A DNA stretch of 64,000 nucleotides, taken from a virus. Within the stretch, counting starts at the first letter, position 1. Every line of letters starts with the position of its first letter. The stretch is taken from IMG/VR virus record IMGVR_UViG_3300045988_144737. One strand, written 5' to 3'. Below are positions 1,256 through 64,000 of this stretch, one piece after another. The translations under genes and the position numbers were made by a program. The notes under the pieces were generated by a model that was not told where the DNA came from, did not search any database, and worked only from the letters and a program-made list of their open reading frames with translations.

Positions 1256-2877
1256 CTAATATGACAAAGTAGTCCACGCTTCAACTAACTCCTTTTTTTC
1301 ATCAGTATCTATCCATTTTTCTTTACCTTTATCAGTAACTATTTTTTTCTTCTTAAACTCTTCTTTGAATGTATTGACCTTTATTATACTATTTAACTTA
1401 AATGGTTGTTTTAGAAAATTAAATCTATTTTTGGTATTCGTAGAAATAATTTCACCATTTTGCAAGTTATATAATTTCATATAAGGTTTACATTCATCTC
1501 TATAAGTTTTATACTCCACTACATAATAAATTGATTTTAAATCATTGTTTGAATAAACAATATTTCCAACAAAGTCACTTTGAACTCTTAATATAAGTTT
1601 AAGCGGTATACTTTTATTTTCAATCTCTTTTTCTATATCTTTTAAAAACGAAATGCAATCAAACTCACTATATCTTTTTGGTGTTTTTTTATTACAATAT
1701 TGACCAACCTTTTCAATATCTACTTCATATGATTTAATTATCTTCTTTTCTTTTGGAGCATACTTTAGTTTATATTCGCTATCAAAAACAATATTATCAC
1801 TCGTTGAAAATTGTTTCTTATTATAAAATCTATCAAAATAATCTAAAATTGTCAATAACTTTTGTGACTTTCCAAATTCTTCAAAAAAATCTAACATAAT
1901 TAATATTTTTAACATTCCAAAATTAATAGACTTGATTTTTAATAATTCACATAACAAGTCAACAAAACTATCATACTCATTGTTTCTCAATAAATACAAA
2001 TCATCGCCAACTTGTTCCCCGATACTTTTTATATTCGACAATCCTTTATAAATCACTTTACTATCTTTATCGAAGAAATAAAATGATTTAGAATATCTAA
2101 ATTTCCAATTTGCGAATGTAATACCTACACCTTTGGCATAGTTAGTAATTCTCTCAACTTTCTCATGATTGTCGCCAAAAATATTCATAAAGGTAGTAAT
2201 AAACTCCAACGGATAATAATATCTTAAATAACCACAAATATAACCAATACAAGAATAAGCATCAGAGTGATTAAATGAGAAACCATATGAACTCGCATCC
2301 AATATAGCTTGAATAAATGGTTTAATAATTTCTTTACATTTTGTAACAGGAACATTATATTCTTGAGAAGTATATGAAATAAATCTACTTTCTATTTCTG
2401 GCAACAAAGATTCAGTGCCAGATTTTTTACTAATTGCTCTTCGAACATTGTCTGACTCCGCCATCGAATATCCACAAAATTTTACTAAGAACATCATAAT
2501 TTGTTCTTGCATTACTAATCTACCTAATGTTGGACTTAAAAAATCATCTAACTCTTTTAAACCATTGTGATAAAATTCTCCATTGGTTGCCTCGTCTCGA
2601 AAACTCGCACAACCAGGTCTGATTAGCCCGTTAGCAAAACTCATTAATTTGATTTTAGAGATATTTTGATTTGTCTCCTCTATTTTTGATAACGTTTTTT
2701 CACTAAACATATTTGATAATGTTTTATATCCTAATGGGGATTCCATTTGGAATATTCCAATGGTATCTCTAGCAATATCTTTCCAAACTTTTTCATCCTC
2801 TAAATCTACATTATCAGGAGTTAGTCTGGGTATGTTGGCTAATTTACAAGTTTCATTAATTAGCCCGATGTTATCTA
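1256..2877 (-). CDS. dnaE: DNA polymerase III alpha subunit (DnaE-type), exon 2 (fingers and C-terminal half)
   Basis: ORF 1256..2746 stays open in frame upstream to 2877 (..DNIGLINETCKLANIPRLTPDNVDLEDEKVWKDIARDTIGIFQMES). Motifs TIGIFQMES, GLIRPG, VMQEQIMMFL, SMAESDNVRRAISKK, GFSFNHSDAYS and YLRYYYPLEF match the DnaE fingers domain. Confidence 0.8.
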
Positions 2878-2895
2878 CAAATTTGTTACACTATG

Positions 2896-3192
2896 CTATT
2901 TTATAATATTTAATAATTTGTTTGTAATGTTATCTTTGTAACTTATTCTCTCTAGTTTAATGTTGTGTTTGCATAATAATTTTTCTTTAAGTTTATCCCT
3001 ATATTGACTATTTAAAAATTTTTGCTTATTTTTATGAAAATGTTTACTATATCTAAAATGTTGATTTCCATCAAACTCAATTACCAAATTTAAAGACTCG
3101 ATATAAATATCTACAAACATATGTTTGTTTGTTTTGTCGTTGACCCACCAATCCCATGTTTTTTCTAATTGATACTTTATATTTTTTTTCAT
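2896..3192 (-). CDS. Homing endonuclease nuclease domain (DUF559/Vsr-like PD-(D/E)XK), in a different frame from the upstream DNA-binding part
   Basis: ..FVDIYIESLNLVIEFDGNQHF.. is the same D-x-Y..IE-x-DG-x-QH core as the endonucleases at 60465 and 62002. It begins inside an A8 run (T8 at 3182-3189 on plus). Confidence 0.55.
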   Translation of the reverse strand: MKKNIKYQLEKTWDWWVNDKTNKHMFVDIYIESLNLVIEFDGNQHFRYSKHFHKNKQKFLNSQYRDKLKEKLLCKHNIKLERISYKDNITNKLLNIIK

Positions 3193-3940
3193 CCAACATT
3201 TTAGTAATAATAATCATGCCACTACTCATATTTCCATAAGAACGATAATTGTTTCCAAACAATTCAAATAATTCTTCTTTATTAAAATAAGTTGAAATAG
3301 CTTGATATGTAAATTCACATTCTAAATCAATAACATATTTAGATATGAATCCATATAAATTATAGCATCTCTTTAATTCCTTTAAAATATGCTCTTTCCC
3401 ATAAACTTTATTTTGTGGTTCATATCCCAATTGTTCAATCATATCATTCCAACCATCAAAATACTTTCTTATAGTGGCACTACTATAAGAACCATGTTGT
3501 TTATATATTCCATAATCAACCTTATTAAAATAGTTAATTACTTTCAACACGTCTTCAATCAATTCATCTTTAGACACATTCTTAGGGGTATTGATTTTCA
3601 AATTATAACTTTTTAACAAGTTGTTATAACCTCCAAAAATTCTTCTTACCGTGCTACTATGAACGCCATATTTTATCAAAGTATCTTTTTTTATTGGAAT
3701 ATTATCAACTATCATTTTCGAGACAACATTGTCAATAAACTCTTTATCAATTTCATTATATTTTTTTAATTTAATTCCTAATTCTTCGCAAACTTTCTTA
3801 AATCCTCCGTATTTGTTAAAATGCCATTGAGCATTTATATCTAAACCGCTATCTTTACTAAAGTCTTTTAAATATACATTACCCTTTTCTTTATAAATTT
3901 CTAATAATTTTTCACATAACAATTCTTTTGTTATTTTCAC
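3077..3940 (-). CDS. Homing endonuclease DNA-binding part (four homing-endonuclease-associated-repeat-like units)
   Basis: Repeated units HFNKYGGFKKVCEELGI, STVRRIFGGYNNLLKSYNL, ATIRKYFDGWNDMIEQLGY, AISTYFNKEELFELFG. GTG start after AAGGTGA. Frame ends 115 nt after the A8 run. Confidence 0.55.
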   Translation of the reverse strand: MKITKELLCEKLLEIYKEKGNVYLKDFSKDSGLDINAQWHFNKYGGFKKVCEELGIKLKKYNEIDKEFIDNVVSKMIVDNIPIKKDTLIKYGVHSSTVRRIFGGYNNLLKSYNLKINTPKNVSKDELIEDVLKVINYFNKVDYGIYKQHGSYSSATIRKYFDGWNDMIEQLGYEPQNKVYGKEHILKELKRCYNLYGFISKYVIDLECEFTYQAISTYFNKEELFELFGNNYRSYGNMSSGMIIITKMLDEKKYKVSIRKNMGLVGQRQNKQTYVCRYLYRVFKFGN

Positions 3941-4239
3941 AATCTATCAATCACCTTAATTATTTTTTTTGCATAGTGGATAAGTCATTTCTGCTTATCT
4001 CTCATGTTTTTCACATGATGTTCAGACTATATAATTCACGAATATTATTCGCTAGTGGGGTTTTTATATACAATCACTTGTATATAAATAAGATATTCTT
4101 ATAGTCGTTGAGGCGGAACTTATCGTGCCTGCTGATTACCCATTGTTACATACTTTGAATTGTCACTTTGTTTCAAGTATCAAAGCCTTTAGGGCTTCCC
4201 AGCATATAACCCACTTTTACTTGGACTAGTAAAACGTCA

Positions 4240-5881
4240 ATCCAAGAATATCAAGTTTCACATACCCCATATGTCCTATTTCGCCCATATTGACACAACT
4301 GACGGGGTACAAGCTATCCTTAGTAGTAAATGTACCAAACTCCCTAAAAATGTTTCTATCACTAATTATTGAACCAGCAGGATGATTTCCTAAAGAAACA
4401 ATTGTACCATTTAAGATATCTACCATTTTAAATTCGTTAGGGTACATCTCCCTATACTTATCTAAACTATCATCTTCCGTAGAATTAGCAACCATACTTA
4501 TAACATCTTCACCATGGCCAAAAGTTGGAAACACATCTCTAATTGCTCCCTTAAGTGCAATGGTATTAAATGTTACAATTTGGCAAGTATATAATTTAGG
4601 ATTATTTAATTTATCTTTTAAAATAAATTCATCAATTCTCTTTTTGTCCTTTTCGTAATAATCGCTATCAATATCAGCCAAAGTCACACGAGATGGATTG
4701 GCATATCTAAAGAAGTTTAAGTCAAACTTAATACTATTCATTTCTGTAATATCCAACAAATAAGCAATCATTGAGCCAGATACAGAACCACGACCAGGTC
4801 CGCAAAAAATACCATTTGACTTTTCCCAATCACGAATATATTTTTGCAATAAAGTAAAGTCAATTAAGTTTGTTTTTTGATATATTGATAACTCCTCATT
4901 AATTCGATGTTTTAATACATCATTAGGAATATCTTTTATATATTCCCATTTGTCTTTCATTCCTTTTAAAATCTTTTGTTTCAAAGTTGTTAAAGGGTCA
5001 TCACTTAATTTTGGATATTTAAACGAAACATCAATTTCATATTCTTCACAACCATTAACCAAAGTATGAGTATTTTCAATTCCCTCATAAACATATTTCA
5101 TATCGATTCCAGTTTTTTCAAACGCATTAATCAATTCATTATAATCCTTAAAGCACAAATCCCAACCATCTTCACTATCAAAATGAATTTTTTTTCTTTG
5201 TTGCAAAGTTTTTCTACCCTCAAATGAATTTTGGTCAATGCAATGGGTGTCAGTTCCAACAATTAAAGGTATACCAAATTTATTATGTAAAGCAATTAAT
5301 TGTTTGTTGTAAGTAATTTGCTCCTCGACATTATGATGTTGAATTTCTAAAAAACATCTATCTTTGTTATCATAAAAGAATTTTATCATCTTTTTTTTCA
5401 TACTTTCACTTGCACTTGGTGAAATTGTGCCACCCAAACATGCTGATGAAAAGTAGAAATTATCACTTAGATTTAATAATTCATCAATAGATATCCTTGG
5501 ATAAAAATAAAACCTTACGACATCATCAATAACTTTAACATTTTCTCTATTAAAACTCTTGCTAACTAATTCATTTAATTCATAAAAAGCCTCTTTGTTC
5601 TTACAATAAATACAAATATGTCGATTATCCCTAATCAATTCATCATGAGTTTCAGTGATATATGCTTCAATCGCATGAATATATTTCAATCCTTGTTTTT
5701 CAGCATATGTCTTTTTATGATACCAAGATAACAAATTTCCATGTTCTGTAAAGACAATTGACTTCATTCCACACTCTTTTGCCCTATCAATAAATTTCGT
5801 ATAGTCATCTATTGAATCGATAATTGTTGTTCCGTTTGACAATTGTGTATGACAATGAATAATATTATAATTATCTTGCAT
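4240..5881 (-). CDS. dnaE: DNA polymerase III alpha subunit (DnaE-type), exon 1 (PHP domain and palm)
   Basis: PHP motif IHCHTQLSNG..FTEHGN. GPGRGSVSGSMIAYLLDITE and RVTLADIDSDY match the DnaE palm. Exon ends ..GYVKLDILG plus 1 nt, and the ORF-track tail LTFY* is intron read-through. Confidence 0.85.
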
Positions 5882-12184: not shown

Positions 12185-12330
12185 GTTTAATTCCCTATTC
12201 AACGTATCCTATTTTGCTACAAAGCTACTCTAGTTTGATATAATACTCCAAGGGCGTAAATTCCCATACAACGCATGGTACACATTAGTATTATCTTTTA
12301 AGTGACTATTCTACTAATCCATATCTACTT
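12185..12330 (-). ncRNA. Candidate omegaRNA/right-end region of TnpB element 1
   Basis: Directly 3' of tnpB on the minus strand. Hairpin CCATgcgttgtATGG, motif TTACGCCCTTGGAG (12248-12259 region) shared with the 3' region of TnpB-2 (TTACGCCTGTGGAG), terminal ..AATTAAACAAGC resembles ..GGTTCAAGC of element 2. Ends are approximate. Confidence 0.4.
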
Positions 12331-13427
12331 AAATTAATACTTGCATTAAAATCTCTATCTATAATGCAACCGCAATCTTCACAAATATAAGTTCTTTCTG
12401 ATAATGATAACTTAGTTTTTATATGTCCACACTCACTGCAAGTTTTTGAAGATGGATACCACTTGTTTGCTTCAACAAATTCTATTCCATAAAACTCGCA
12501 TTTATATTTCATTTTCACTTTGAAATCATATAAACATTGTTCTGCAACAGCTTTTGACAAATGACGATTTTTCATCATTCCCTTAATATTAAGTGTTTCC
12601 ATAACAACTCTTGATGGCTTGGTTTTCACTATCTTATTCGTTGCTTGGTGAATATGATTGCTTCTTATATTTGCTAATCGCCTATGAAGTAATCTAATTT
12701 GCTTTTCGAGTTTTGCAATATTCTTAGTTTTGACATACTCCTTTCCTTTTTTATTCATATCATATTTTCTTGAACATTGTCTTTGTTTTCTCTTTAATTT
12801 TTTCTTTAGTTTTTTAACTTCTTTAGTTTTATTAATGTTTTTAAAAGTCATTCCGTTGGAACATATAGCCAAGTCTTTTATACCTATATCTATTCCAATA
12901 GATTCCCCTGTTAATTCTACATTTTTTAATTCTCTTTCTATGCCTATTGACAAGTACCAATACTTTCCGTCAAAGCTTATTCTTGGATTACTATATTTAA
13001 CATCTAAAGGAATTGAATGAGGTTTAATATTAATCCATCCAACCTTTTCTATATTTACAACATTGTCCTTAACTTTAAGTTTGACGTTATCATTATAGAA
13101 TGATGGTTTAGATTTCTTTTTGCTTTTAAATCTAGGTTTACCAGCTAACCCTTTGAAGAACCTTTTATAAGAATTACAAGCATCTTTTACAGCTTGTTTA
13201 GCTACATTATTAGATACATCATTAAGCCAAGCCAACTCACCTTTCTTTAATTGAGTTATCTCTTTTCTCAAATCTCCATCTTTTATGAATTTACCACCAT
13301 TCTTATAATTATCTTCTTGTCTTGCAAGTGTCCAATTATATATATATCTAGATGTCCCTGCTGATTGCCATAATCTTTGTTCTTGAATTTTTGTTGGATA
13401 TAATCTAACTCTTTTCGCTAGCATCAT
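12306..13427 (-). CDS. tnpB: TnpB (IS200/IS605-IS607 family RNA-guided RuvC nuclease, OrfB)
   Basis: N-terminal KRVRLYPTKIQEQ, RuvC motifs GIDIGIKDLA, VVMETLNIKGM, DRDFNASINL, and zinc ribbon CSECG..CEDCG. Confidence 0.85.
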   Translation of the reverse strand: MMLAKRVRLYPTKIQEQRLWQSAGTSRYIYNWTLARQEDNYKNGGKFIKDGDLRKEITQLKKGELAWLNDVSNNVAKQAVKDACNSYKRFFKGLAGKPRFKSKKKSKPSFYNDNVKLKVKDNVVNIEKVGWINIKPHSIPLDVKYSNPRISFDGKYWYLSIGIERELKNVELTGESIGIDIGIKDLAICSNGMTFKNINKTKEVKKLKKKLKRKQRQCSRKYDMNKKGKEYVKTKNIAKLEKQIRLLHRRLANIRSNHIHQATNKIVKTKPSRVVMETLNIKGMMKNRHLSKAVAEQCLYDFKVKMKYKCEFYGIEFVEANKWYPSSKTCSECGHIKTKLSLSERTYICEDCGCIIDRDFNASINLSRYGLVE

Positions 13428-33964: not shown

Positions 33965-35520
33965 ATGAAATCTCCAAAGTTGTATAAAGTTTTAAATTTT
34001 AATTTAAAGGAAATTATTGAAGAAAACTTTATGATAGTTGGCGATAATCAATATATCAAAAGTCATTTAAAGTATACCAGTGATAATCAAGAGTTTAGAC
34101 AAATTAGATTAATTACGAATACAAATAATAAAATGAATAAATATATTGCTTTTGTTGAATTTGATGGAGGAACAAAGGAAGAGGATTTAAAATCAATAGT
34201 TAGAAACGGTTTTAGATTTAATGACCAAGAATTTGTATTAAGTGAACGCAGTGGTTCTATGAGCAGAACTGGGAAGTTAAGTTTTGTTGATAAAACTATC
34301 GCACAAGAATTAGATAAAAGAATATCTATGGATAATAGGATTGACAAAACAGTAGTAAGCAAATTATCAGCATACAGAGGGTTGATGTTAACTGGGTGTC
34401 ATATGTTAGAAAATTATATGCCTAAGATAATTATTACCAAAGGATTAAATAGAACTATAAAAAATGTAAAAATTAAATGTTTGCATGATAAACAAGATAC
34501 ATTCAAAAATGAAGATGGAGAAATTATCGAATATACTAAAAAAGTAATAGAGGAAGAAACTAGAGATATTGAAATAGATTGTTTTGATGGAATGGGTATA
34601 GTTCATCCTTTAGTTGTTGAAGAAATGACTAAAGAGTTAGATTTGCCAAAGGATATTAATACTATGATTGTTAGAGCGTGCTATATGAAGGGTTGTATTC
34701 ATAAGGTTGATTATACAAAGTTTTTTGTTGACCATGGTGTTGAATGGATAGAAGATATTTGGGGTGTTAAACATAGCGTTTATGAACCTATGATTATTAT
34801 GGATAAGTCTATGTATAAAGGTTTTAATTATTTCAAATATTACAACGATTATAGAGATTGGGAATATTATTTATCTAAGTTAGAAGAGTATGACCATGTA
34901 TTTGGCATTGCTAAATACAATTTTAATGAAAAAGATGAGAAAATTTATACAAAGGCAAATTATCAAATATTACAAGATTTAAACATCCCATTTTCAGATT
35001 TTGAGAAGTTGGGAGATAAAACTTTGGATTATTTTCAAAAAGTCATAGATGGCAAAGAGGAATATGTAAAAACATTCTTAGGAATTTGTGGAGATAAGTA
35101 TAAACTTAGTAGTAATTATATTAAAGCCATTGCTAAAAATCCAGAGATGCTTAAGCAAGAGGGTGTAGTAAATCATGTTATAAATTTATTAAAAGGAAAT
35201 ATAAACGATGCTAAATGTGGAAAGTTATATTTAAGAGGTTGTTTTAAGTTTGCAGTTCCTGATTTGATTTTGTTTATGGAGCATATTGGTGGACTAGAGC
35301 CAAATGGTTGTTTAGGATTTCAAGAGTTTTGGACTAGAGGTAGATGTGGTTACGAAGTTGGAAAAGAATATCTCATTACACGAAATCCACATATTTGCAG
35401 CTCAGAACACGATGTAGTTACATATGTAAGAAATGAACTAATCGAAAAGTATTTAGGGCATTTGCAAAATGTTTGTATGGTGGACTGTAATAGCCCACAC
35501 ATGGCGAGATTAAATGGGAT
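33965..35520 (+). CDS. YonO/RdRP-like single-subunit RNA polymerase, exon 1
   Basis: ..YLITRNPHICSSEHDVV..VCMVDCNSPHMARLNG parallels the RdRP/YonO RNPCLHPGD...SG segment preceding DxDGD. The ORF-track tail IGQSVPLYRNI* is intron read-through. Confidence 0.7.
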
Positions 35521-36433
35521 AGGACAATCTGTCCCACTATATAGAAATATATAGTTAAAAACACAGTGAACCTAGAAATCTAGGGTGTATGATTTACGAT
35601 AAGGAATAGTAGGAAATGACTATTAGAAATCATGCTAACAGGGGAAGCATTAATTGTAATCCTGTGTTGTATTAAATTATAATCTATATTATATTAATTT
35701 AAAGGAGGTGTTGATATGTCATTTGAAATAAAAATTAACAATGAGAAGGAATGGAAAGAAGTCAATATTAATGGATTATCATATGTTATAAGTAATTATG
35801 GTGATGTTGTTACCTTATCAAATCGCTCTCATAAAATCGTTCCACATTTGAATAAGGACGGTTATCCAATAGTAACAGTTGGAAAAAATCCTAGAGTTGG
35901 AAAACCAGTTCATTTATTGGTTGCCATGTTATTTGTAGATGGATATAAAGATGGATATGAGGTAAATCACAAAGATTTTGATAGAACTAATTACCATTAT
36001 TCTAACTTAGAGTGGGTAAGCCATAAAGATAATATTAATTACTCTTATAAAAATGGTAGACACACTAAAAGAATAAATAGTTTGTATGGAAATAATAGAA
36101 AATTAAAAAAAGAGGCTTTCTTAGATATATTAAATAAACTAGAAAATGGTATGCCTTGTTGTGATATAGCAATATATTATGGCGTATCTGTTGACGTTGT
36201 TTATAACATAAAAAGCGGAAAGACTTATAAAGAATATAGATAATATAGATATAGTTTAATGTAATCAACAGACTAGCGAAAGAGTATTGTATGTTCCTAT
36301 GGGAATATACAAGAGTAATTGAGTAGGGTACATTTGGAGTGAAACTCTCTATTTGGAAGCGCTGTGAGCCTAAGTCAGTAATGATATGGCTATGATATAG
36401 TCGGATATAAATACAATATATGTGTTTATATAG
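35521..36433 (+). mobile_element. Group I intron with HNH homing-endonuclease gene, in the RNA polymerase gene
   Basis: P1 TGGGAT (35515-20) / GTCCCA (35531-36) with U.G at the splice site. P10 GGATT (36434-38) / AATCT (35526-30). R-like AATCAACAGACTAGCG, S ATGATATAGTCGG. Intron ends in G 36433. 1556+1039 nt = 865 codons in frame. Confidence 0.75.
35716..36243 (+). CDS. HNH homing endonuclease (NUMOD4-like N-terminus plus HNH_3 plus C-terminal HTH)
   Basis: WKEV..YVISNYGDVVT, GYPIVTV, VHLLVAMLF, EVNHKDFDRTNYHYSNLEWVSHKDN. AAAGGAGGTG RBS. Confidence 0.8.
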   Translation: MSFEIKINNEKEWKEVNINGLSYVISNYGDVVTLSNRSHKIVPHLNKDGYPIVTVGKNPRVGKPVHLLVAMLFVDGYKDGYEVNHKDFDRTNYHYSNLEWVSHKDNINYSYKNGRHTKRINSLYGNNRKLKKEAFLDILNKLENGMPCCDIAIYYGVSVDVVYNIKSGKTYKEYR

Positions 36434-37472
36434 GGATTTTGACGGTGATTTATTGTTCGTTTTAGACGAACCAACCATGATTAAAGGGGTTGATATGTCG
36501 ATTCCAGTAACTATGGATATTCAAGATAAAATAACTGTAGAACCAGATTATTATAATATTGATAGCATCGAAAAATTAATAATTAATAATTCTAGTAATA
36601 GAATTGGAGAATATTCTAACTACAGCAGTTGCTATCATAACAAGATGAAAAAAACAGAAAAAACAAAAAAAATACATGATGATTATATCTCTACGCTAAG
36701 TATTTTTGTTGGCAAAGAAGTTGATGCGTCAAAAACTGGGATAAGATTTAATTTACCAAAAGCAATTGCCAAGTATGCAAGACCAATTCCATACTTTATG
36801 AAGTATCGTAGTCCATATTATGCCACCTTAAGAGATTTTAATAAATACCGAAGTAATATGAACGCAATGTGTTTTAAAATAGAGAATTGGGAAAGAAAAA
36901 TAAAATACACAAGAACTTATGATAACTTTGATTATACTATTATGATAGATGAAGGTGTTGAGGATAATCAAGATGTTATGGGTAAAATAGAAAAGATTTA
37001 TTTAGAATTTGTTAACTTATCGCAAGATTTAATTATTGAACAACGTAATTTAAATACTTATGGAGACAATAGAATAAAACAAGTAAAGGATAAAAATAAT
37101 TTAACTATTAAAGAAGCCAAGGATTTGAATAGATATGAAAAAGCAAAAGAGTATATCCAAGATAATTATTTAAGTGTTAATAAAAGGTTTGCAAAAGAGT
37201 ATCAAGTTGATTGGGCTTATTATTATGAGGATTATAAAGACAAGTTGTTAAAAATTACAAGCAACAAAAAATTGATTGTAAATTGTATTGTTAAATTATG
37301 TTATGAGAAATATCCAAAAAAAAGCAAAAAGATTTTATGGGCGGTGGTTGGAGATTGGTTACCTAATAACATAGAAGCAGTCACTCATAATATACCATAT
37401 CGAGATGATAATGGTGATATTGAGATATTAGGAGAAAGATATTCATTAAAAGAAATTAAAAGCGAGGTGTAA
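36434..37472 (+). CDS. YonO/RdRP-like single-subunit RNA polymerase, exon 2
   Basis: Begins (M)DFDGDLLFVLDE, the double-psi beta-barrel metal-binding motif (compare NADFDGD of beta-prime and DLDGDLYFV of RdRPs). Confidence 0.7.
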
Positions 37473-38323: not shown

Positions 38324-38347
38324 TGTGTGAAAAGCGAGGTAAAATCA

Positions 38348-39451
38348 ATGGAGAAAGCTTATAAATATAGGATTTATCCAAATAAAAAGCAAAAAGAAAT
38401 AATTGCTAAAACATTTGGTTCATGTAGATTTGTTTACAATAAATATTTAGCAAAACGCATTGAAATGTATGAAAATAATAAAGAAACATTTTCATATGTG
38501 CAATGTGCCAATGATATGAAACAACTTAAATCAAAATTAGAATGGTTGAAAGAAGTTGATTCCACTGCTCTCCAATCTTCTCTCAAAGACTTGGATATGG
38601 CTTATCAAAAGTTCTTCAAAGAACACTTTGGTTATCCTAAATTCAAATCTAAGAAAACACATAGATTTTCATATAAATCAAAATGTGTAAATAAAAATAT
38701 TCAGTATTGCGGAAAACATATTAAACTTCCAAAGTTAGGAATGGTAAAAACGAAAAACAAGTTGATACCACAAGGAAGAATACTCAATGCCACCGTTTCA
38801 CAAGAACCGAGTGGAAAATATTATGTGTCTATTTGTTGTATTGATGTTGATATTACTACATTAGAAAATACAAATAATTACATTGGATTAGATTTGGGAA
38901 TTAAAGAATTTTGCATCACAAGCGATGGAGAAATGATAGAAAATCCTAAGTATCTCAAGAAGTCATTAGATAAACTTGCAAAATTACAAAGAGAATTATC
39001 TCGAAAATCAAAAGGTAGTTCAAATCGTAATAAAGCAAGAATTAAGGTGGCAAGATTACAAGAGCATATTACTAATCAAAGAAAGGATTTTCTACATAAG
39101 TTGTCTACAAAAATAATTAGAAACAATGATATCGTGTGCATAGAAGACCTTCAAGTAAAGAATATGATTAAAAATCATAAACTTGCTCGTAGTATTGCGG
39201 ACGCATCATGGTCAGAATTTGTTAGACAATTGGAATATAAAGCAAATTGGTGTAATAGAAAAGTTATTAAAGTAGATAAATTCTTTGCAAGTTCTCAAAC
39301 TTGTAATGTATGTGGATATGTAAATAAGGGAACTAAAAATCTTAGTGTCAGAGAATGGGATTGTCCTTGTTGTCATACTCACCATGATAGAGATATAAAT
39401 GCTGCTATCAATATTTTTAATGAAGGATTAAGAATGTCGCAAGTAGCATAG
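38348..39451 (+). CDS. tnpB: TnpB (IS200/IS605 family RNA-guided RuvC nuclease, OrfB)
   Basis: [65 protein letters not shown] 38348 after GAGGT. Confidence 0.85.
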
Positions 39452-58419: not shown

Positions 58420-59712
58420 GTGGCTCAAGAAAAATATATTGCTAGTATTAAAGTAGCATTGGATAAGGCTAGTATTGAAGATGTTACCAAAAGACTTGAT
58501 ACAATAACTTCTCAAAAACGAGAAATGTCGTTGGCAATCAATAAGGGCGATATGGATGCCTTCTACAATTCGGTTGCAAAGGTTGAAACGGAGACAAAGA
58601 AATTACAATCGTCATTGAATATTACTGCCAAAGACACTAAGACTTTAATTAGTAGTTATAATCAAGCTAATAATTCTAGCAATAGATTAAATCAAACACT
58701 AGATAAACAAATACAAAAATTAAATAAAATTAGAGCATTACATCAAAGCGCATTTGAAGATGAAGGTATTGGCGGTCAATTCGATAAGGTGAATGAGGCT
58801 ATTAGCAAAGCCCAAGCCGATACTACAGCGGAAAATGTTTCAAATGTAAAAAAGCAAATAAGTTTATTGAGTGATGAAGTTTCTATTTATAATAATAGAG
58901 AAAAGTCGTTAGGGGAACAATTAAGGTATAGTGCCGAAAGATTTACTAAGTATGTAATTGGTGCACAAGCATTGTTTATGACTATTTCTGTCGTTAACAA
59001 AATGATTGATAATGTCAAGGAGTTAGATAGTGCATTAGTCGAAATACAAAAGGTTACAAATCTTAGCGGACAAGCATTGCAAGATTATACCGACAAAGCA
59101 TTTCAAGTAGGCGAAACGGTTGGTAGAACTGGTACTGAAGTATTAAAGGCTGCTGGAGATTTTGCTCGAAGTGGATATGCTTTAAATGAAACCTTGACAT
59201 TGGCTCAAGAAGCTGCTACAATGTTAAATGTAGCCGATGAAATGAGTGATATTTCAACTGCGTCATCAACTTTAATTTCAGTAATGAAAGCATATAATTT
59301 ACAAGCTAGTCAAGCTGGTGAAATTACTGATACGTTGAATGAGGTAAGTAATAATGCTGCGATATCTTTTGATGATTTGGCAGAAGGAATTTCCAGATCT
59401 GGTGCAGTATACGCTCAAGCTGGAACTTCTATGGGCGAATTAACGGGATTGCTTACAGGTGCAAACGAAGTATTACAAAATATTGAGAAAACTTCTACTG
59501 GTTTGGTAACAATATCTCAACGTATTAGAGGTATTGAAGAAGCAGGAGATGAGGCTACACCAGGGGTTGCCAAATTAGGCAAGGACTTGGAAGAAATAGC
59601 TGGAATTAATTTAATGGATAGCGAGGGTCAACTAAGAGATACTTATGATATTCTCAAAGACTTGGCAGAAGTCTATCCTACGTTGACTACAAATCAACGT
59701 CAATATTTGGGT
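58420..59712 (+). CDS. Tail tape-measure protein, exon 1
   Basis: GTG after AAAGGAGGGTG. Coiled-coil N-terminus then a PhageMin_Tail-like core (..ALVEIQKVTNLSGQ..GRTGTEVLKAAGDFARSGY..). Ends ..TTNQRQYLG. The ORF-track tail WLLCLAQ.. is intron read-through. Confidence 0.8.
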
Positions 59713-60087
59713 TGGCTACTATGTTTAGCCCAATTAAAACAATTTGAATTGTTGGGAAGTCCTAAAGTCTATTAAACTACAACGTGGCTTGAAAAGGCGA
59801 GCGTGAATGTGAACGAAAGTTAGAAAAAATTAATAGAATGGCATATGGTGAAATATGAATGTGGTGACATAGCCCTAAGTGCTTTATAATGGATAATCAA
59901 CAGCCAAGACTCGTATAGAGTAAGGTTTAACGACTATCTCGTAAGAGAGTAGGGTCACAAGCGATTGGTGACTCGAAGCGGATTGGCTCTCAATGAGAGT
60001 ATGATATAGTCTGTTCTCATGCGAAAGTATGAGTATTTGATATAATTCAAATAGGCTTAGTCTAGCGAACTAAGTTTCACAAAAAAG
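59713..60087 (+). mobile_element. Group I intron A in the tape-measure gene (ORF-less, 375 nt)
   Basis: P1 TTGGGT (59707-12) / GCCCAA (59728-33) with U.G. Q AATCAACAGCC, R GGTTTAACGACTATC, S ATGATATAGTCTG, P9 CTCATgcgaaagtATGAG. Ends in G 60087. Confidence 0.7.
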
Positions 60088-60102
60088 GAGCAGATAGCTG
60101 GT
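60088..60102 (+). CDS. Tail tape-measure protein, 15-nt micro-exon (EQIAG)
   Basis: GAGCAGATAGCTGGT. Preceded by G, ends in U that pairs in the P1 of intron B. Keeps the frame. Confidence 0.6.
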
Positions 60103-61419
60103 TAATCTTTAGCCAGAGTGTATAGAGATATACACCAAGTACAGACCTAATTGCTGGGAACTCTCGAAGTATTTATAAACTAAACATACTTAGAAATAAG
60201 CATGTATAAGTGATATATATAAATATATGTGACAATCAGCAGCGAAGCCCCTAAGTCGTTTAGATATGGGGTGTGTTCAACGACTATCGAAATTAATAAT
60301 AAATATAACTCTACAATGTAGAGAATAAGGCACGTAAAAGTGGATGAATAAAGTAGAGTACGCCTTTATGGTGGAAATGGTCTGCCCCTATTATATAGGG
60401 TGAAGATATAGTCTAGTCTTGCATGAGAGTGTAAGGATTTTTTATTGTTGAATTGAATAATGATATGAAGAAAAAATTAGATGAAAAAATAGAAGATGCT
60501 AAAAAGTTTATAAAAGAAAATTATAATAATAAGTACGAATTTGTAGATGCTTATTATAAAAACACTAAGAGCAAAAGAAGGAAAAATGGGCGCAATGAGT
60601 TTTTTATTAAATTAAAATGTAACACATGCAGCGAAGTGTTTGAAAGAAAATATTGCGCTTTTAAAGCTAATGATAGATGTTTTTATTGTGTTACATATAC
60701 TCAAAATTCATTTTTGCATAATCAAATCAGCTTAATGGCAAAACGATATTGTGATAATGTTGAAACAGAAAAAGACATAGGCTTTAAAGGCTTGAAAGGA
60801 AAGCCTAGTAAATATGATTTATATATTCCAAATCATTATGAATTTGGAAATGTTTTAATAGAATTTCAAAGTAGATTCCATGATAACAAAAGGGATTTTG
60901 ACATGAAGAAAAAGCAATACGCTTTAGAAAGTGGATTTAATTTCATGGAGTTTGATGAGCGAGATTACAATATTGATGATGTTAGTTTAATATTATTTGG
61001 TAAGGTTGTTGATGAAGATATTAAAAATAATTTCTTAAAAAGACCAATCGATTTTGATGAAGTTCAAAAACTTTTAGATAAAAATATGACGTATAAAGCG
61101 ATTGGAGAAAAATTAAAAATATCACCAAATATTATTCAAAACCATGTCAACCGAGGTAGGTTGTATTTAAGAAAAGATAGAATGAATTATACTCATAACA
61201 AAACACCATTGATAAGAATTGACGCCCAAGGGAATATAACCGAGGTCGACAGCGCTTGGGGGTATTTTAAATCAACAGGTGACAAAATACCCAGACCAAA
61301 ACAAGGAAGTATGATTTTTAGTCACGGTTATTTTTGGGTAAGAAAAAATGACTATATTAATAACAATTACAAAGAACACAGGAGATTTAAAAAAATTCAA
61401 CAATAAATAAATTAAAACG
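60103..61419 (+). mobile_element. Group I intron B in the tape-measure gene, with homing-endonuclease gene
   Basis: P1 CTGGT (60098-102) / GCCAG (60112-16). P2 GTGTATA/TATACAC. P AATTGCTGGGAAC, Q AATCAGCAGCG, R GTGTTCAACGACTATC, S GAAGATATAGTCTAG. Ends in G 61419. Confidence 0.7.
60465..61406 (+). CDS. Homing endonuclease: zinc ribbon plus DUF559/Vsr-like PD-(D/E)XK core plus C-terminal HTH
   Basis: CNTCS..CFYC; KYDLYIPNHYEFGNVLIEFQSRFH; MTYKAIGEKLKISPNIIQNHVNRG. ATG 60465 is preferred over the TTG at 60453. Confidence 0.6.
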   Translation: MKKKLDEKIEDAKKFIKENYNNKYEFVDAYYKNTKSKRRKNGRNEFFIKLKCNTCSEVFERKYCAFKANDRCFYCVTYTQNSFLHNQISLMAKRYCDNVETEKDIGFKGLKGKPSKYDLYIPNHYEFGNVLIEFQSRFHDNKRDFDMKKKQYALESGFNFMEFDERDYNIDDVSLILFGKVVDEDIKNNFLKRPIDFDEVQKLLDKNMTYKAIGEKLKISPNIIQNHVNRGRLYLRKDRMNYTHNKTPLIRIDAQGNITEVDSAWGYFKSTGDKIPRPKQGSMIFSHGYFWVRKNDYINNNYKEHRRFKKIQQ

Positions 61420-61531
61420 AAGAGACAAGTTGCAGTTTTAGAAAGTTTATTAACAAATTGGCAATCTGTAGACAAAGCAGTACAAGCAGCTGCAAATAGT
61501 ACAGGTAGTGCAACTGAGGAACAAGAGAGGT
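61420..61531 (+). CDS. Tail tape-measure protein, exon 3
   Basis: KRQVAVLESLLTNWQSVDKAVQAAANSTGSATEEQER plus 1 nt. Not in ORF track (no start codon). Confidence 0.7.
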
Positions 61532-62939
61532 TAGAATAAAATAGCCTATGTGTATAGTAATATGCACTAAGAATATATTTAATTGCAGGTAATCCCTAAA
61601 GTCTTGCACCACAATAATGGCGAAAGCACATTATGAAGGTACGAAAGTAGAAACAACGCAAGAATGGCATATGGTCAAAAGCCTAAGTGTCTATACAATG
61701 GGTGTTCATGCAACCAAGTTCCCTAACGTTATACACAAATCATGTGTTAGTTAAGTCGAGGGAAAAGGTTCAACGACCAGATTCATGTCGAGATTAAAGC
61801 AAGAGAATAAGGGTGGAAATCCCGAATACTTTAATCAATAATCGTAGGGCGCAATCGCTATTGGCGTGGGTGAGAACCCCTTAAATCGAAAAGGTATACC
61901 CCTATATAATATTAGGGTGAAGAAATGGTCTGCGCATATGCGAAAGTATATGAATTAAATATCGAGTTATTATAAAAGGGGATGGTATTATTAAAAGAAA
62001 ATTGTGGGATATAAATAGTGTAAGAGAGTTTTTAAAGGAGAGAGGATATAATTTAATTTCTGAAGAATACAAAAATAACAAAGAAAAGATATTTTTTGAA
62101 AAAGATGGTTATAAGTATTCGAGTACCATAAATTGTATCACGAGACAAAAAGATGTTCAATCTAAGTTTTCGGCACGCAACCCATATATGTTGGAAAATA
62201 TTAAAAAATATATGCGTGACAACAATTGGAAAATTAAATTATTAACTAAAATAAATCCTCATAAAAATGATGATAAGTTGGAGTTTCAATGCGTTTGTGG
62301 TGCTAAATTTAGTGCCACGTTTAAAAATTTGAGAAAAAATGTAGACCCATTGTGTCCTGCTTGTTCAATAAGAAGACGTAGCAATATGCTTAAAACCACA
62401 AAGGAAGAGGCTAATAGGTTTTTAAAAGAAAATGGTTATAAAATAAAAATTATAGGAAACTATACAAAAGGTAATGCGCCTACGACCTTTTTGTGTGATT
62501 GTGGTAATGTTTTTACTACTACATTTCATGATGTTAAGTGGAGCAAGCGAATTCAATGTCCTGAATGTAATAACGTTATGTCAAAAATAGAAAGATTAAC
62601 TGAAAATTATTTAAGGGATTTGGGAATGTTGTTTGAGATGCAAAAAACTTTTGATGGATGTAAGATGAAAAGGTTGTTGCGCTTTGATTTTTATTTACCC
62701 AAATTAAATACTTGTATAGAGGTGCAAGGAGAGCAACATTATAAGAAAAAGTTTTATGTCAAAGATTGGGAATTAACTCAACGTAGAGATGAGACAAAGA
62801 GGGATTTTTGCTTAAAAAATGGTATCAAGTTAATAGAAGTTCCTTGGTATCTCTATAAAGACAATCAATATAAGACTTACATATTAGAACAACTCGATAT
62901 TTAATTAGTTAAAATTAGCGATTTTAATTAACATTACGG
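61532..62939 (+). mobile_element. Group I intron C in the tape-measure gene, with homing-endonuclease gene
   Basis: P1 AGGT (61528-31) / GCCT (61544-47). P2 GTGTATA/TATGCAC. R GGTTCAACGACCAGA and S GAAGAAATGGTCTGC carry compensatory P7 changes (GACCA/TGGTC versus GACTA/TAGTC in the other introns). Ends in G 62939. Confidence 0.7.
62002..62904 (+). CDS. Homing endonuclease: two (helical module plus zinc ribbon) repeats plus DUF559/Vsr-like PD-(D/E)XK core
   Basis: VREFLKERGYNLIS..CVCG..CPAC and ANRFLKENGYKIKI..CDCG..CPEC. ERLTENYLRDLG..RFDFYLPKLNTCIEVQGEQH. TTG start. Confidence 0.6.
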   Translation: MWDINSVREFLKERGYNLISEEYKNNKEKIFFEKDGYKYSSTINCITRQKDVQSKFSARNPYMLENIKKYMRDNNWKIKLLTKINPHKNDDKLEFQCVCGAKFSATFKNLRKNVDPLCPACSIRRRSNMLKTTKEEANRFLKENGYKIKIIGNYTKGNAPTTFLCDCGNVFTTTFHDVKWSKRIQCPECNNVMSKIERLTENYLRDLGMLFEMQKTFDGCKMKRLLRFDFYLPKLNTCIEVQGEQHYKKKFYVKDWELTQRRDETKRDFCLKNGIKLIEVPWYLYKDNQYKTYILEQLDI

Positions 62940-64000
62940 ATTTAAATTCTATTGAGGGTAAAACCCAACAAATGTTGTCGGCATTTGAACAATTATCTAC
63001 TAATACATTAGATAGTAATTGGCTTAAAATGTTAATAGATGCCTCAACCGCAGTTATTGAATTAACTGATAATGTAGGGTTATTAAATGTAGCTTTTGGA
63101 GCATTTGTTGCTTATGCTACTTTTAAAAATGAGGGTAAGCCAACTAAATTGTGGGAAACATTAAAAAACAATATTATAGAAATAAGGGATAACGTTAAGA
63201 GCACAACGGTTTCTTTAAGCAAACAAGATGAAGGCGTTAAGGAAATCTTGTTGTCACAAAAGAATTTAAAGACCTTAGAAGAACAAAGGGCTTATCTTAA
63301 AAAAACCGAAACAAAATATAACGAGGCTACATTGGGTCTTATTCACCAACAAGTTGCAGCTGAGAGAACAAAAAATCAAGTGGTAGCAGTTGGTAAATCA
63401 TTAGCAATGGGGCTAGTTGGTGTTTTGGCAGGTATGGCACTAAGTGCTGTTATTTCTTCAGCAGCCGAGGCATTTCATGAATGGACTCATCCAATTGAAA
63501 CAGCCAAAGAAAACTTAGATGAAATATCTAATGAGTTAGAAAGTGCCAATAGTGAACTTGAGGGGTTAAAAAATTCTACAAAAGACTTAACTCCACAAGA
63601 AGAAACTAGGTTACAAGTATTACAAGCACAAACTGAGCAATTAAAACAACAACAAGAATTGCAGGCACAAGAAACTGGTAAAATGCAATTCAAAGACACC
63701 AGTGGTGGTCAAGTTGAAAGAGTTCAAAAATATGATGGTACATTTACTTATAAATATAAAGTAGATACAAGCGAAGTAGATGCGTTTAACGCTAAATTGG
63801 AAGATGGAACTAATTATACGGTTCATGCCGATATGAGCGAGATTGAAGATGCTAAACAAACTATGATTGATGCAGCCAACGCTATTAGTGAAGCTGGTGT
63901 TGATGCTACTGATGAACAAAAAGAAGCATACAATCAATCGGTTGAAAATTACAATGAGATAGCTACTCAATATGCTGATATATTCGCTCAAATGACCGCA
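62940..64000 (+). CDS. Tail tape-measure protein, exon 4 (open at window end)
   Basis: (Y)LNSIEGKTQQMLSAFEQLSTNTLDSNWLKMLIDAS.., TM-like GLVGVLAGMALSAVISS, then coiled coil. Frame open to nt 64000. Not in ORF track. Confidence 0.75.

Follow-up and report, generated by a model that had tools for sequence, protein, structure and literature searches.

The DNA described here is a viral stretch of 64,000 nt, IMG/VR record IMGVR_UViG_3300045988_144737, referred to below as the window (the whole stretch, at its full length). At its end, on the plus strand, lies a tape-measure gene whose reading frame is divided by three insertions, introns A, B and C (Table 1). We consider it about 90% probable that this gene, from a Thomasclavelia-type gut phage, consists of four exons separated by three distinct, mobile introns of group I, phage type IA, with the junctions listed in Table 1. 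Established directly were the exact ends of the insertions, the ribozyme cores and their base pairing, and an unbroken joined protein. An earlier note on this DNA had already proposed three group I introns in the gene; the proposal is supported by matches of short stretches to the Rfam group I model RF00028, by empty alleles in related phages, and by the joined protein.

Three-frame translation returned the reading frames and exon pieces as they had been described in that note. The open reading frame (ORF) that holds exon 1 (58420-59775) continues past 59712 and reads 60 nt into intron A until a stop at 59773-59775; in-frame stops stand 0, 5, and 60 nt inside the introns, the first codon of intron B being an in-frame TAA. 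The predicted joined DNA reads ..TTGGGT/GAGCAGATAGCTGGT/AAGAGACAAG.. and, at site C, ..GAGAGGT/ATTTAAAT.., with a Tyr codon split T/AT at the junction of exons 3 and 4 (slashes mark junctions).

Table 1 Exons, introns, intron-encoded reading frames, and ribozyme helices of the tape-measure gene (positions in the window)
Feature	Position	Strand	Description
Exon 1	58420-59712	+	431 codons, GTG start; ends ..CAA TAT TTG GGT (QYLG), protein ..TTNQRQYLG
Intron A	59713-60087	+	375 nt; no ORF; terminal G at 60087; subgroup IA architecture
Exon 2	60088-60102	+	15 nt, GAGCAGATAGCTGGT; encodes EQIAG
Intron B	60103-61419	+	1317 nt; terminal G at 61419; ribozyme core 60103-60435
ORF in intron B	60453-61406	+	317 aa; 3' of P9; putative homing endonuclease
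Exon 3	61420-61531	+	112 nt; KRQVAVLESLLTNWQSVDKAVQAAANSTGSATEEQER plus first base (T) of Tyr codon; KRQVAV..EEQER
Intron C	61532-62939	+	1408 nt; terminal G at 62939; ribozyme core 61532-61952
ORF in intron C	62002-62904	+	300 aa; 3' of P9; homing endonuclease (predicted)
Exon 4	62940-64000	+	AT TTA AAT..; (Y)LNSIEGKTQQMLSAFEQL.., (Y)LNSIEGK..; open to the window end, gene continues past it
Helices, intron A	P1 59707-15/59725-33; P3 59740-46/59979-85; P4 59750-55/59897-902; P7 59932-37/60006-11; P7.1 59937-48; P7.2 59953-73; P9 60016-33; P9.1 60034-53; P9.2 60056-74	+	P8 also formed
Helices, intron B	P1 60098-105/60109-116; P3 60142-47/60379-84; P7 60282-87/60408-13; P9 60418-35	+	P2, P4, P6, and P8 also formed
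Helices, intron C	P3 61574-79/61893-98; P7 61775-79/61926-30; P9 61935-52	+	P1 AGGU/GCCU; P2, P4, P6, and P8 also formed

Joined protein and empty alleles in relatives

The joined partial protein comprises 827 residues (..QYLG/EQIAG/KRQV..EEQER/YLNSIEGK..). Its resemblance to the core of tape-measure proteins, which the earlier note had pointed out, was borne out when the alignment check was run: PF10145 matches with 97.9 bits (cut-off 33.2) over profile positions 2-201 of 201, at residues 225-436, and TIGR01760 with 113.4 bits (cut-off 28.8) over profile positions 7-329 of 349, at residues 191-525. The TIGR01760 match is a single stretch spanning all three junctions; the PF10145 match stops at residue 436, the final residue of exon 2. 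The five residues of exon 2 are needed for spacing, since the alignment to a 40%-identical homologue (P0002) is gap-free through the junction region.

The closest deposited relatives are the Thomasclavelia phages TR-TP1 (L001) and TR-TP2; three further relatives (L004, L005, and L006) were found by scanning IMG/VR with the joined peptide. Exons of the window are 91-99% identical to those of the relatives and free of frameshifts and stops. Introns A, B, and C are all present in the window phage; TR-TP1 carries A, enlarged by a 1.2-kb nuclease ORF, lacks B and C, and has its tape-measure gene interrupted once more beyond the end of the window; L005 (IMGVR_UViG_3300045988_134720) carries A, lacks B and C, and has an extra intron, termed Z, in exon 1; L006 carries B and lacks A and C; L004 lacks all three.

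At site A, positions 4699 and 4700 of L006 correspond to 59712 and 60088 of the window at 98% identity, giving the direct join TTGGGT/GAGCAGATTGCTGGT. Site B is empty in TR-TP1, L005, and L004, which read GCTGG(A/G) AA(A/G).. and encode an uninterrupted EQIAGKRQV, with EQIAG or ELIAG contiguous. Site C is empty in TR-TP1, L004, L005, and L006, which read ..(A/C)G(G/A/T) TAT TT(G/A).. and encode ..(D/E/A)RYL(S/D/N)SI(Q/E)GK. The empty-site reading of L004 is QRQYLGELIAGKRQVSV...EEEARYLDSIEGK. Exon 3 adjoins its neighbours directly in TR-TP1, L004, and L005, and exon 4 is collinear with L004, L005, L006, and TR-TP1. The empty sites match the predicted joined sequence exactly, and the joined ORF is continuous and equal to that of the intron-less alleles, the frame being restored at all three junctions. 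Because the empty alleles fix the junctions to the base, the three insertions are discrete elements, with ends exactly where the earlier note had placed them.

At position -1 of site B, both occupied alleles have T and every empty allele has A or G (synonymous Gly codons), as would be expected if a U·G pair is required. Intron A of TR-TP1 is 98.5% identical to that of the window, and TR-TP1 was isolated from faeces as a phage (PMC12694917); the presence of the intron in this essential tail gene of an isolated phage lends indirect support to splicing in vivo. The ORF of intron B has 96.6% nucleotide identity to its counterpart in L006.

Ribozyme cores of introns A, B, and C

Each intron was submitted to RF00028 as a query of 380-500 nt; the Rfam gathering score for this model is 50 bits. 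Full-length matches to the model were obtained for intron A (48.6 bits, E 1.8e-11), intron B (68.6 bits, E 1.6e-17), and intron C (32.9 bits, E 1e-6), the splice-site U of the model falling on 60102 in B and on 61531 in C.

The conserved core elements, the pairings at the 5' splice sites, the intron ends, and a compensatory change in P7 had all been predicted, and each was recovered. The motif scan located Q at 59895 and 60234, R at 59925, 60275, and 61768, and S at 60001, 60403, and 61920. The R-like motif TYAACGACYA occurs four times in the window (0.32 expected) and the S-like motif GAWATRGTCTR likewise four times (0.28 expected), a count reached in 0/100 shuffles for either motif; three copies of each lie within 59.9-61.9 kb. 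In the helix check, P1 at the 5' splice site was UUGGGU/GCCCAA in A, CUGGU/GCCAG in B, and AGGU/GCCU in C, with a U·G pair in each; the U of this pair in intron A is the last base of exon 1, and exon 2 contributes its last 5 nt to P1 of intron B as the exon strand. Every intron ends in G. Helices P1 to P9 are complementary in A, B, and C, as are P7.1, P7.2, P9.1, and P9.2 in A.

Covariation was judged from the helix table of the three introns. P3 differs in sequence with pairing kept (CAAUUUG/CGGAUUG in A, CAGACC/GGUCUG in B, UAUAUU/GGUAUA in C); P7 is GACUA/UAGUC in A and B and GACCA/UGGUC in C, where a C-G pair replaces U-A; P6a, P8, and P9 likewise vary among the three introns with pairing retained. 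Folding by energy only, at z-scores between -2.2 and -2.9, regains P1, P2, P7.1, P7.2, P8, P9, P9.1, and P9.2. Candidate P10 pairings of 4 bp are TCTT at 60106 with AAGA of exon 3 (intron B) and AAAT at 61539 with ATTT of exon 4 (intron C).

In introns B and C, the segment from P7 to P3' is about 90-115 nt long and contains hairpins; in intron A the helices at this place, P7.1 and P7.2, were recovered by folding. These hairpins place the three introns in subgroup IA. All three cores are similar by blastn to intron-bearing regions of many Firmicutes phages, including the lysK intron of phage K and the bnrdF intron of SPbeta, and similar DNA is also found with the cores in many intergenic gaps of Staphylococcus, Enterococcus, and Listeria phages.

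Splicing, alternatives, and intron movement

Under the four-exon reading, the whole gene would be transcribed as a single pre-mRNA. Each ribozyme would fold into P1-P9, and an exogenous guanosine would cut after the U of the P1 U·G pair; the terminal G of the intron would then enter the G-binding site and the exons would be ligated, with P10 pairing helping in B and C. The joined mRNA would encode one continuous tape-measure protein. The nucleases of B and C would presumably cut intron-less alleles in co-infection, upon which repair would copy the intron in (homing). Intron A may have lost its nuclease gene in the window phage, or may never have had one; in TR-TP1 a nuclease ORF sits in place of the P9.1 loop of this intron. 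Both splicing and homing would be expected from what is known of how group I introns react and spread.

Several observations weigh against this reading. Introns A and C score below the gathering score of RF00028 (intron B lies above it), and the model was absent both from a whole-window scan at the gathering threshold and from a scan of 59500-63200 at E<=10. In intron A, the P1 proposed by the model itself (U at 59704, low posterior probability) conflicts with the empty-allele junction, and no P10 of at least 4 bp was found. The family matches of the ORF in intron B are weak, so that its nuclease activity is uncertain.

For the scores, the validated bnrdF intron of SPbeta served as control; it reaches only 41.8 and 36.9 bits with RF00028. 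The gathering score thus appears too strict for this phage subgroup, since a validated intron also falls under it, and the negatives from large stretches are artefacts of the speed filters, because the 380-500-nt stretches match and the control scores low. The search with RF00028 across 59.7-63.0 kb that the earlier note had suggested as a check accordingly returned nothing, although all three introns match as short stretches; taken at face value it would have wrongly told against the finding, being a filter artefact. With default or 'permissive' filters, Rfam cmscan recovered 0/4 of the group I introns of the window (the fourth is described below) from 64-kb or 3.7-kb queries and all four from queries of 380-500 nt. 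Phage intron surveys with default filters and gathering scores will therefore undercount. As the P1 of the model is misplaced in intron A, the junction of this intron was set by the empty allele of L006.

Among the alternatives, the one that survives best accepts splicing and makes it other than constitutive: exon 2, 15 nt between two ribozymes, would sometimes be skipped, or splicing efficiency would gate late expression, with isoforms or a delay as the result. Skipping from the 5' site of A to the 3' site of B would drop exactly five codons and keep the frame. We regard this as improbable, however: the peptide of exon 2 (EQIAG/ELIAG) is part of the region covered by PF10145 and is conserved, and TR-TP1 and L005 have A without B and L006 has B without A, so that neither intron depends on the other.

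Less probable still is that the insertions are decayed, non-splicing relics, the tape-measure gene being a pseudogene of a defective prophage or a set of separately expressed fragments. The GenBank records of TR-TP1 and TR-TP2 list the pieces as separate coding sequences (CDS; for TR-TP1, two 'tape measure' CDS and an 'HNH endonuclease'), and the scores of A and C, below gathering, also count for it. Yet all core helices are intact and the U·G pairs and terminal G residues are kept; the exons are unbroken and closely conserved, as described above; the pieces of 15 and 112 nt have no start codons and cannot be expressed alone; TR-TP1, isolated as a phage, carries intron A; and the SPbeta control, a validated intron, scores below gathering too. 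Least credible of all is a split of the gene at the DNA level by mobile cassettes with no working ribozyme, such as free-standing homing-endonuclease genes: free-standing nuclease genes splitting phage genes are known and two of the insertions hold nuclease-like ORFs, but intron A, which has no ORF, still stands as a discrete insertion and has a complete group I core, B and C have some 330-420 nt of ribozyme 5' of the ORF, matched end to end by the model, and the boundaries lie at the U·G pair and the terminal G, as the group I mechanism demands.

The four-exon reading has consequences for the annotation of these phages. The records of TR-TP1 and TR-TP2 hold fragments and an 'HNH endonuclease' and no introns, and the paper on these phages makes no mention of introns (PMC12694917). 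The joined gene is needed for structural inference, because the length of the tape measure sets the length of the tail. The sibling phages include every tested combination of occupied and empty sites, and these are ready substrates for homing, intron loss, and retargeting in phages of the human gut.

Intron movement within the gene may go further. In a tentative picture, which we think possible and rather less probable than its opposite, at least five sites (Z, A, B, C, and a downstream D) would make the gene an active arena of intron movement, with introns assorting independently, the ribozyme of intron C recently transposed within the gene and retargeted, and the 15-nt exon perhaps permitting skipping and thereby a second isoform.

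Intron Z of L005 (3084-3612 of that record, corresponding to 59384/59389 of the window, in exon 1) is a 98.5%-identical copy of the ribozyme core of intron C without a nuclease ORF. Its target resembles site C (CAGAGGGT/ATTTCC vs GAGAGGT/ATTTAA; AGAGGGT/ATTT vs AGAGGT/ATTT), and its guide sequence differs from that of intron C by one base, G to C. A simple in-frame parse of Z is non-canonical, with G at -1 or T as the final intron base; the canonical parse would give one extra Ser codon.

The further interruption of the TR-TP1 tape-measure gene, beyond the end of the window (L001 8171-9680), contains a nuclease ORF of 415 aa from the same family as the ORF of intron C (phrog_559, E 2e-49); a regular-expression scan of this insertion found no R or S motif. 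In a more distant phage (L003, ENA ERZ10622448 NODE_6227), whose tape-measure gene is only 40% identical, sites A, B, and C are empty and the gene is interrupted at two other positions, 3060-3461 and 4122-4886, one of them with an ORF on the opposite strand. The tape-measure genes of the wider group are suggested to be recurrent insertion targets.

Nucleases, known systems, and other elements of the window

The nuclease ORFs of intron B, intron C, and intron A of TR-TP1 all lie 3' of P9. The ORF of intron C matches phrog_559 (E 8.6e-51), phrog_9084 ('homing endonuclease'), and phrog_7140 ('intron encoded nuclease'); its homologues bear PF14311, PF05265, or PF10881 (DUF4379, DUF723, and DUF2726), and a few are named very-short-patch-repair (Vsr) endonuclease. 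Repeated zinc-ribbon modules are followed by a C-terminal I-Bth0305I/Vsr-like nuclease domain, and D229, E240, G243, and H246 are invariant in 49 homologues. An AlphaFold (AF2) model built from the alignment of these 49 homologues, TR-TP1 proteins excluded, has a pLDDT of 91; its best match in the Protein Data Bank (PDB) is 3r3p_B, the catalytic domain of I-Bth0305I (TM-score 0.75 by target length, probability 1.00, Foldseek E 0.011), followed by Vsr (1vsr), next in rank among the single-domain matches. As modelled, the ORF of intron C has a Vsr-like nuclease fold, not HNH, contrary to the annotation of the TR-TP1 relatives. The PHROG label 'HNH endonuclease' on the ORFs is a family name only, and no Pfam HNH family matches the ORF of intron B or of intron C.

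The ORF of intron B contains a divergent nuclease motif, DLYIP..IEFQSRFHD (D..Y.P...IE.Q...H), followed by a C-terminal helix-turn-helix (HTH). Its family matches are to phrog_4538 (E 3.2e-7), phrog_323, and HTH_38 (E 0.012), and at E 0.099 the motif aligns to the part of the intron C ORF that holds its catalytic region. Judged by its sequence, it may be a divergent and weakly similar relative of the intron C nuclease, and a putative homing endonuclease. Searches of the intron ORFs against PDB sequences with phmmer gave spurious matches only (interleukin-2, ribosomal proteins), and the matches in Pfam and NCBIfam, to zinc-ribbon and HTH families, all stayed below threshold.

I-Bth0305I (PDB 3R3P) is, like the ORF of intron C, an intron-encoded phage nuclease, and no other PDB structure matches the C-terminal domain of that ORF better; it differs in that sequence identity is 17%, the match is missed by phmmer against PDB, and the Foldseek E of 0.011 is modest. 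The N-terminal zinc-ribbon repeats of the intron C ORF have no counterpart in the solved I-Bth0305I domain.

Group I introns in tape-measure genes, and several introns per gene, are already known in phages. In Bacillus cereus-group prophages (lambdaBa01-like), the tape-measure gene holds the group I introns TMP-IVS1, IVS2, and IVS3, of IA1 or IA2 type (Tourasse & Kolsto 2008, PMC2504315). The two systems have in common the tape-measure host gene, three distinct sites, IA-type ribozymes, and patchy presence, as well as related ribozymes at different sites with altered P1 guides and some copies without nuclease (PMC2504315). They differ in host lineage, the window being from an Erysipelotrichales gut phage, and in occupancy: the combinations described in the B. 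cereus group fill at most two sites (E33L, IVS1+IVS3a; KBAB4, IVS2+IVS3a), whereas the window has three filled, two of them only 15 nt apart.

Twort orf142, a tail tube gene, is interrupted by three group I introns that self-splice, and exon skipping occurs in it, as cited in PMC11878797 (Landthaler & Shub 1999). Going by that citation, it is alike in being a virion structural gene of a Firmicutes phage that holds three group I introns, and different in the gene and in that splicing is experimental in Twort and predicted in the window; the cores of A, B, and C have DNA similarity to introns of Twort- and K-like staphylococcal phages. The bnrdF intron of SPbeta resembles intron C in its IA layout and its P, Q, R, and S elements, and 46-48 nt of intron C between P7 and P3' (61844-61894) are 96% identical to it; its host gene, however, encodes ribonucleotide reductase, its nuclease ORF lies between P4-P6 and P7 (3' of P9 in intron C), and yosQ of SPbeta is annotated as HNH, the nuclease of intron C being of another family. 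Polymerase and terminase genes of Bastillevirinae contain two or three introns (PMC11878797), mycobacteriophages have introns in capsid and tail genes (PMC3706429), and very short exons occur between organellar group I introns (PMC5436844).

Set against Twort, Bastillevirinae, and the B. cereus-group prophages, the intron density that the earlier note had called unusually high is not exceptional for Firmicutes phages (PMC11878797, PMC2504315). What is particular to the window is that three sites are filled in one tape-measure gene and that a 15-nt exon serves two introns, lying 3' of A and 5' of B, this exon 2 being the most unusual detail; a predicted nuclease of Vsr-like fold, rather than the usual HNH or GIY-YIG, is a further such feature.

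Five introns in 64 kb had also been counted, of which a fourth is borne out by RF00028 and a fifth shows intron-like motifs with no match to the model. The fourth group I intron (2747-4258, minus strand; RF00028 36.2 bits, E 8.8e-8, at 4258-4001) lies in a DNA polymerase III alpha-type gene, with exon ORFs 4226-5881 (PHP and DNA_pol3_alpha) and 1256-2746 (finger and HHH_6); ORF 3077-3940 inside it has the homing-endonuclease-associated repeat PF18780. The possible fifth is a gap at 35555-36419 (plus strand, region 33965-37472) with an HNH_3/NUMOD4 nuclease ORF at 35716-36243, situated between a 529-aa ORF and a second ORF whose match is to the C-terminal portion of PF05183, an RdRP family that in a phage we take to suggest a YonO-like RNA polymerase. 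Group I-like elements in the gap are AATCAACAG, GAGTAGGGT, and ATGATATAGTCGG at 36392; RF00028 had no match in 35520-36450.

Two TnpB (IS605 OrfB/Cas12f-like) genes are present, one in the region 12191-13427 (minus strand; TnpB 12306-13427) and one at 38327-39451 (plus strand), the latter with no Rfam match beside it. That the first TnpB gene, with its RAGATH-18 RNA, belongs to an IStron, a fusion of a group I intron with an IS element, was considered and rejected by reasoning alone: only 137 nt separate TnpB from the upstream ORF, and a nearby Q-like motif lies inside the TnpB coding sequence. The RAGATH-18 RNA is found at the 3' end of this gene (12254-12191, 70.8 bits), a position that presumably fits the guide (omega) RNA of TnpB elements.

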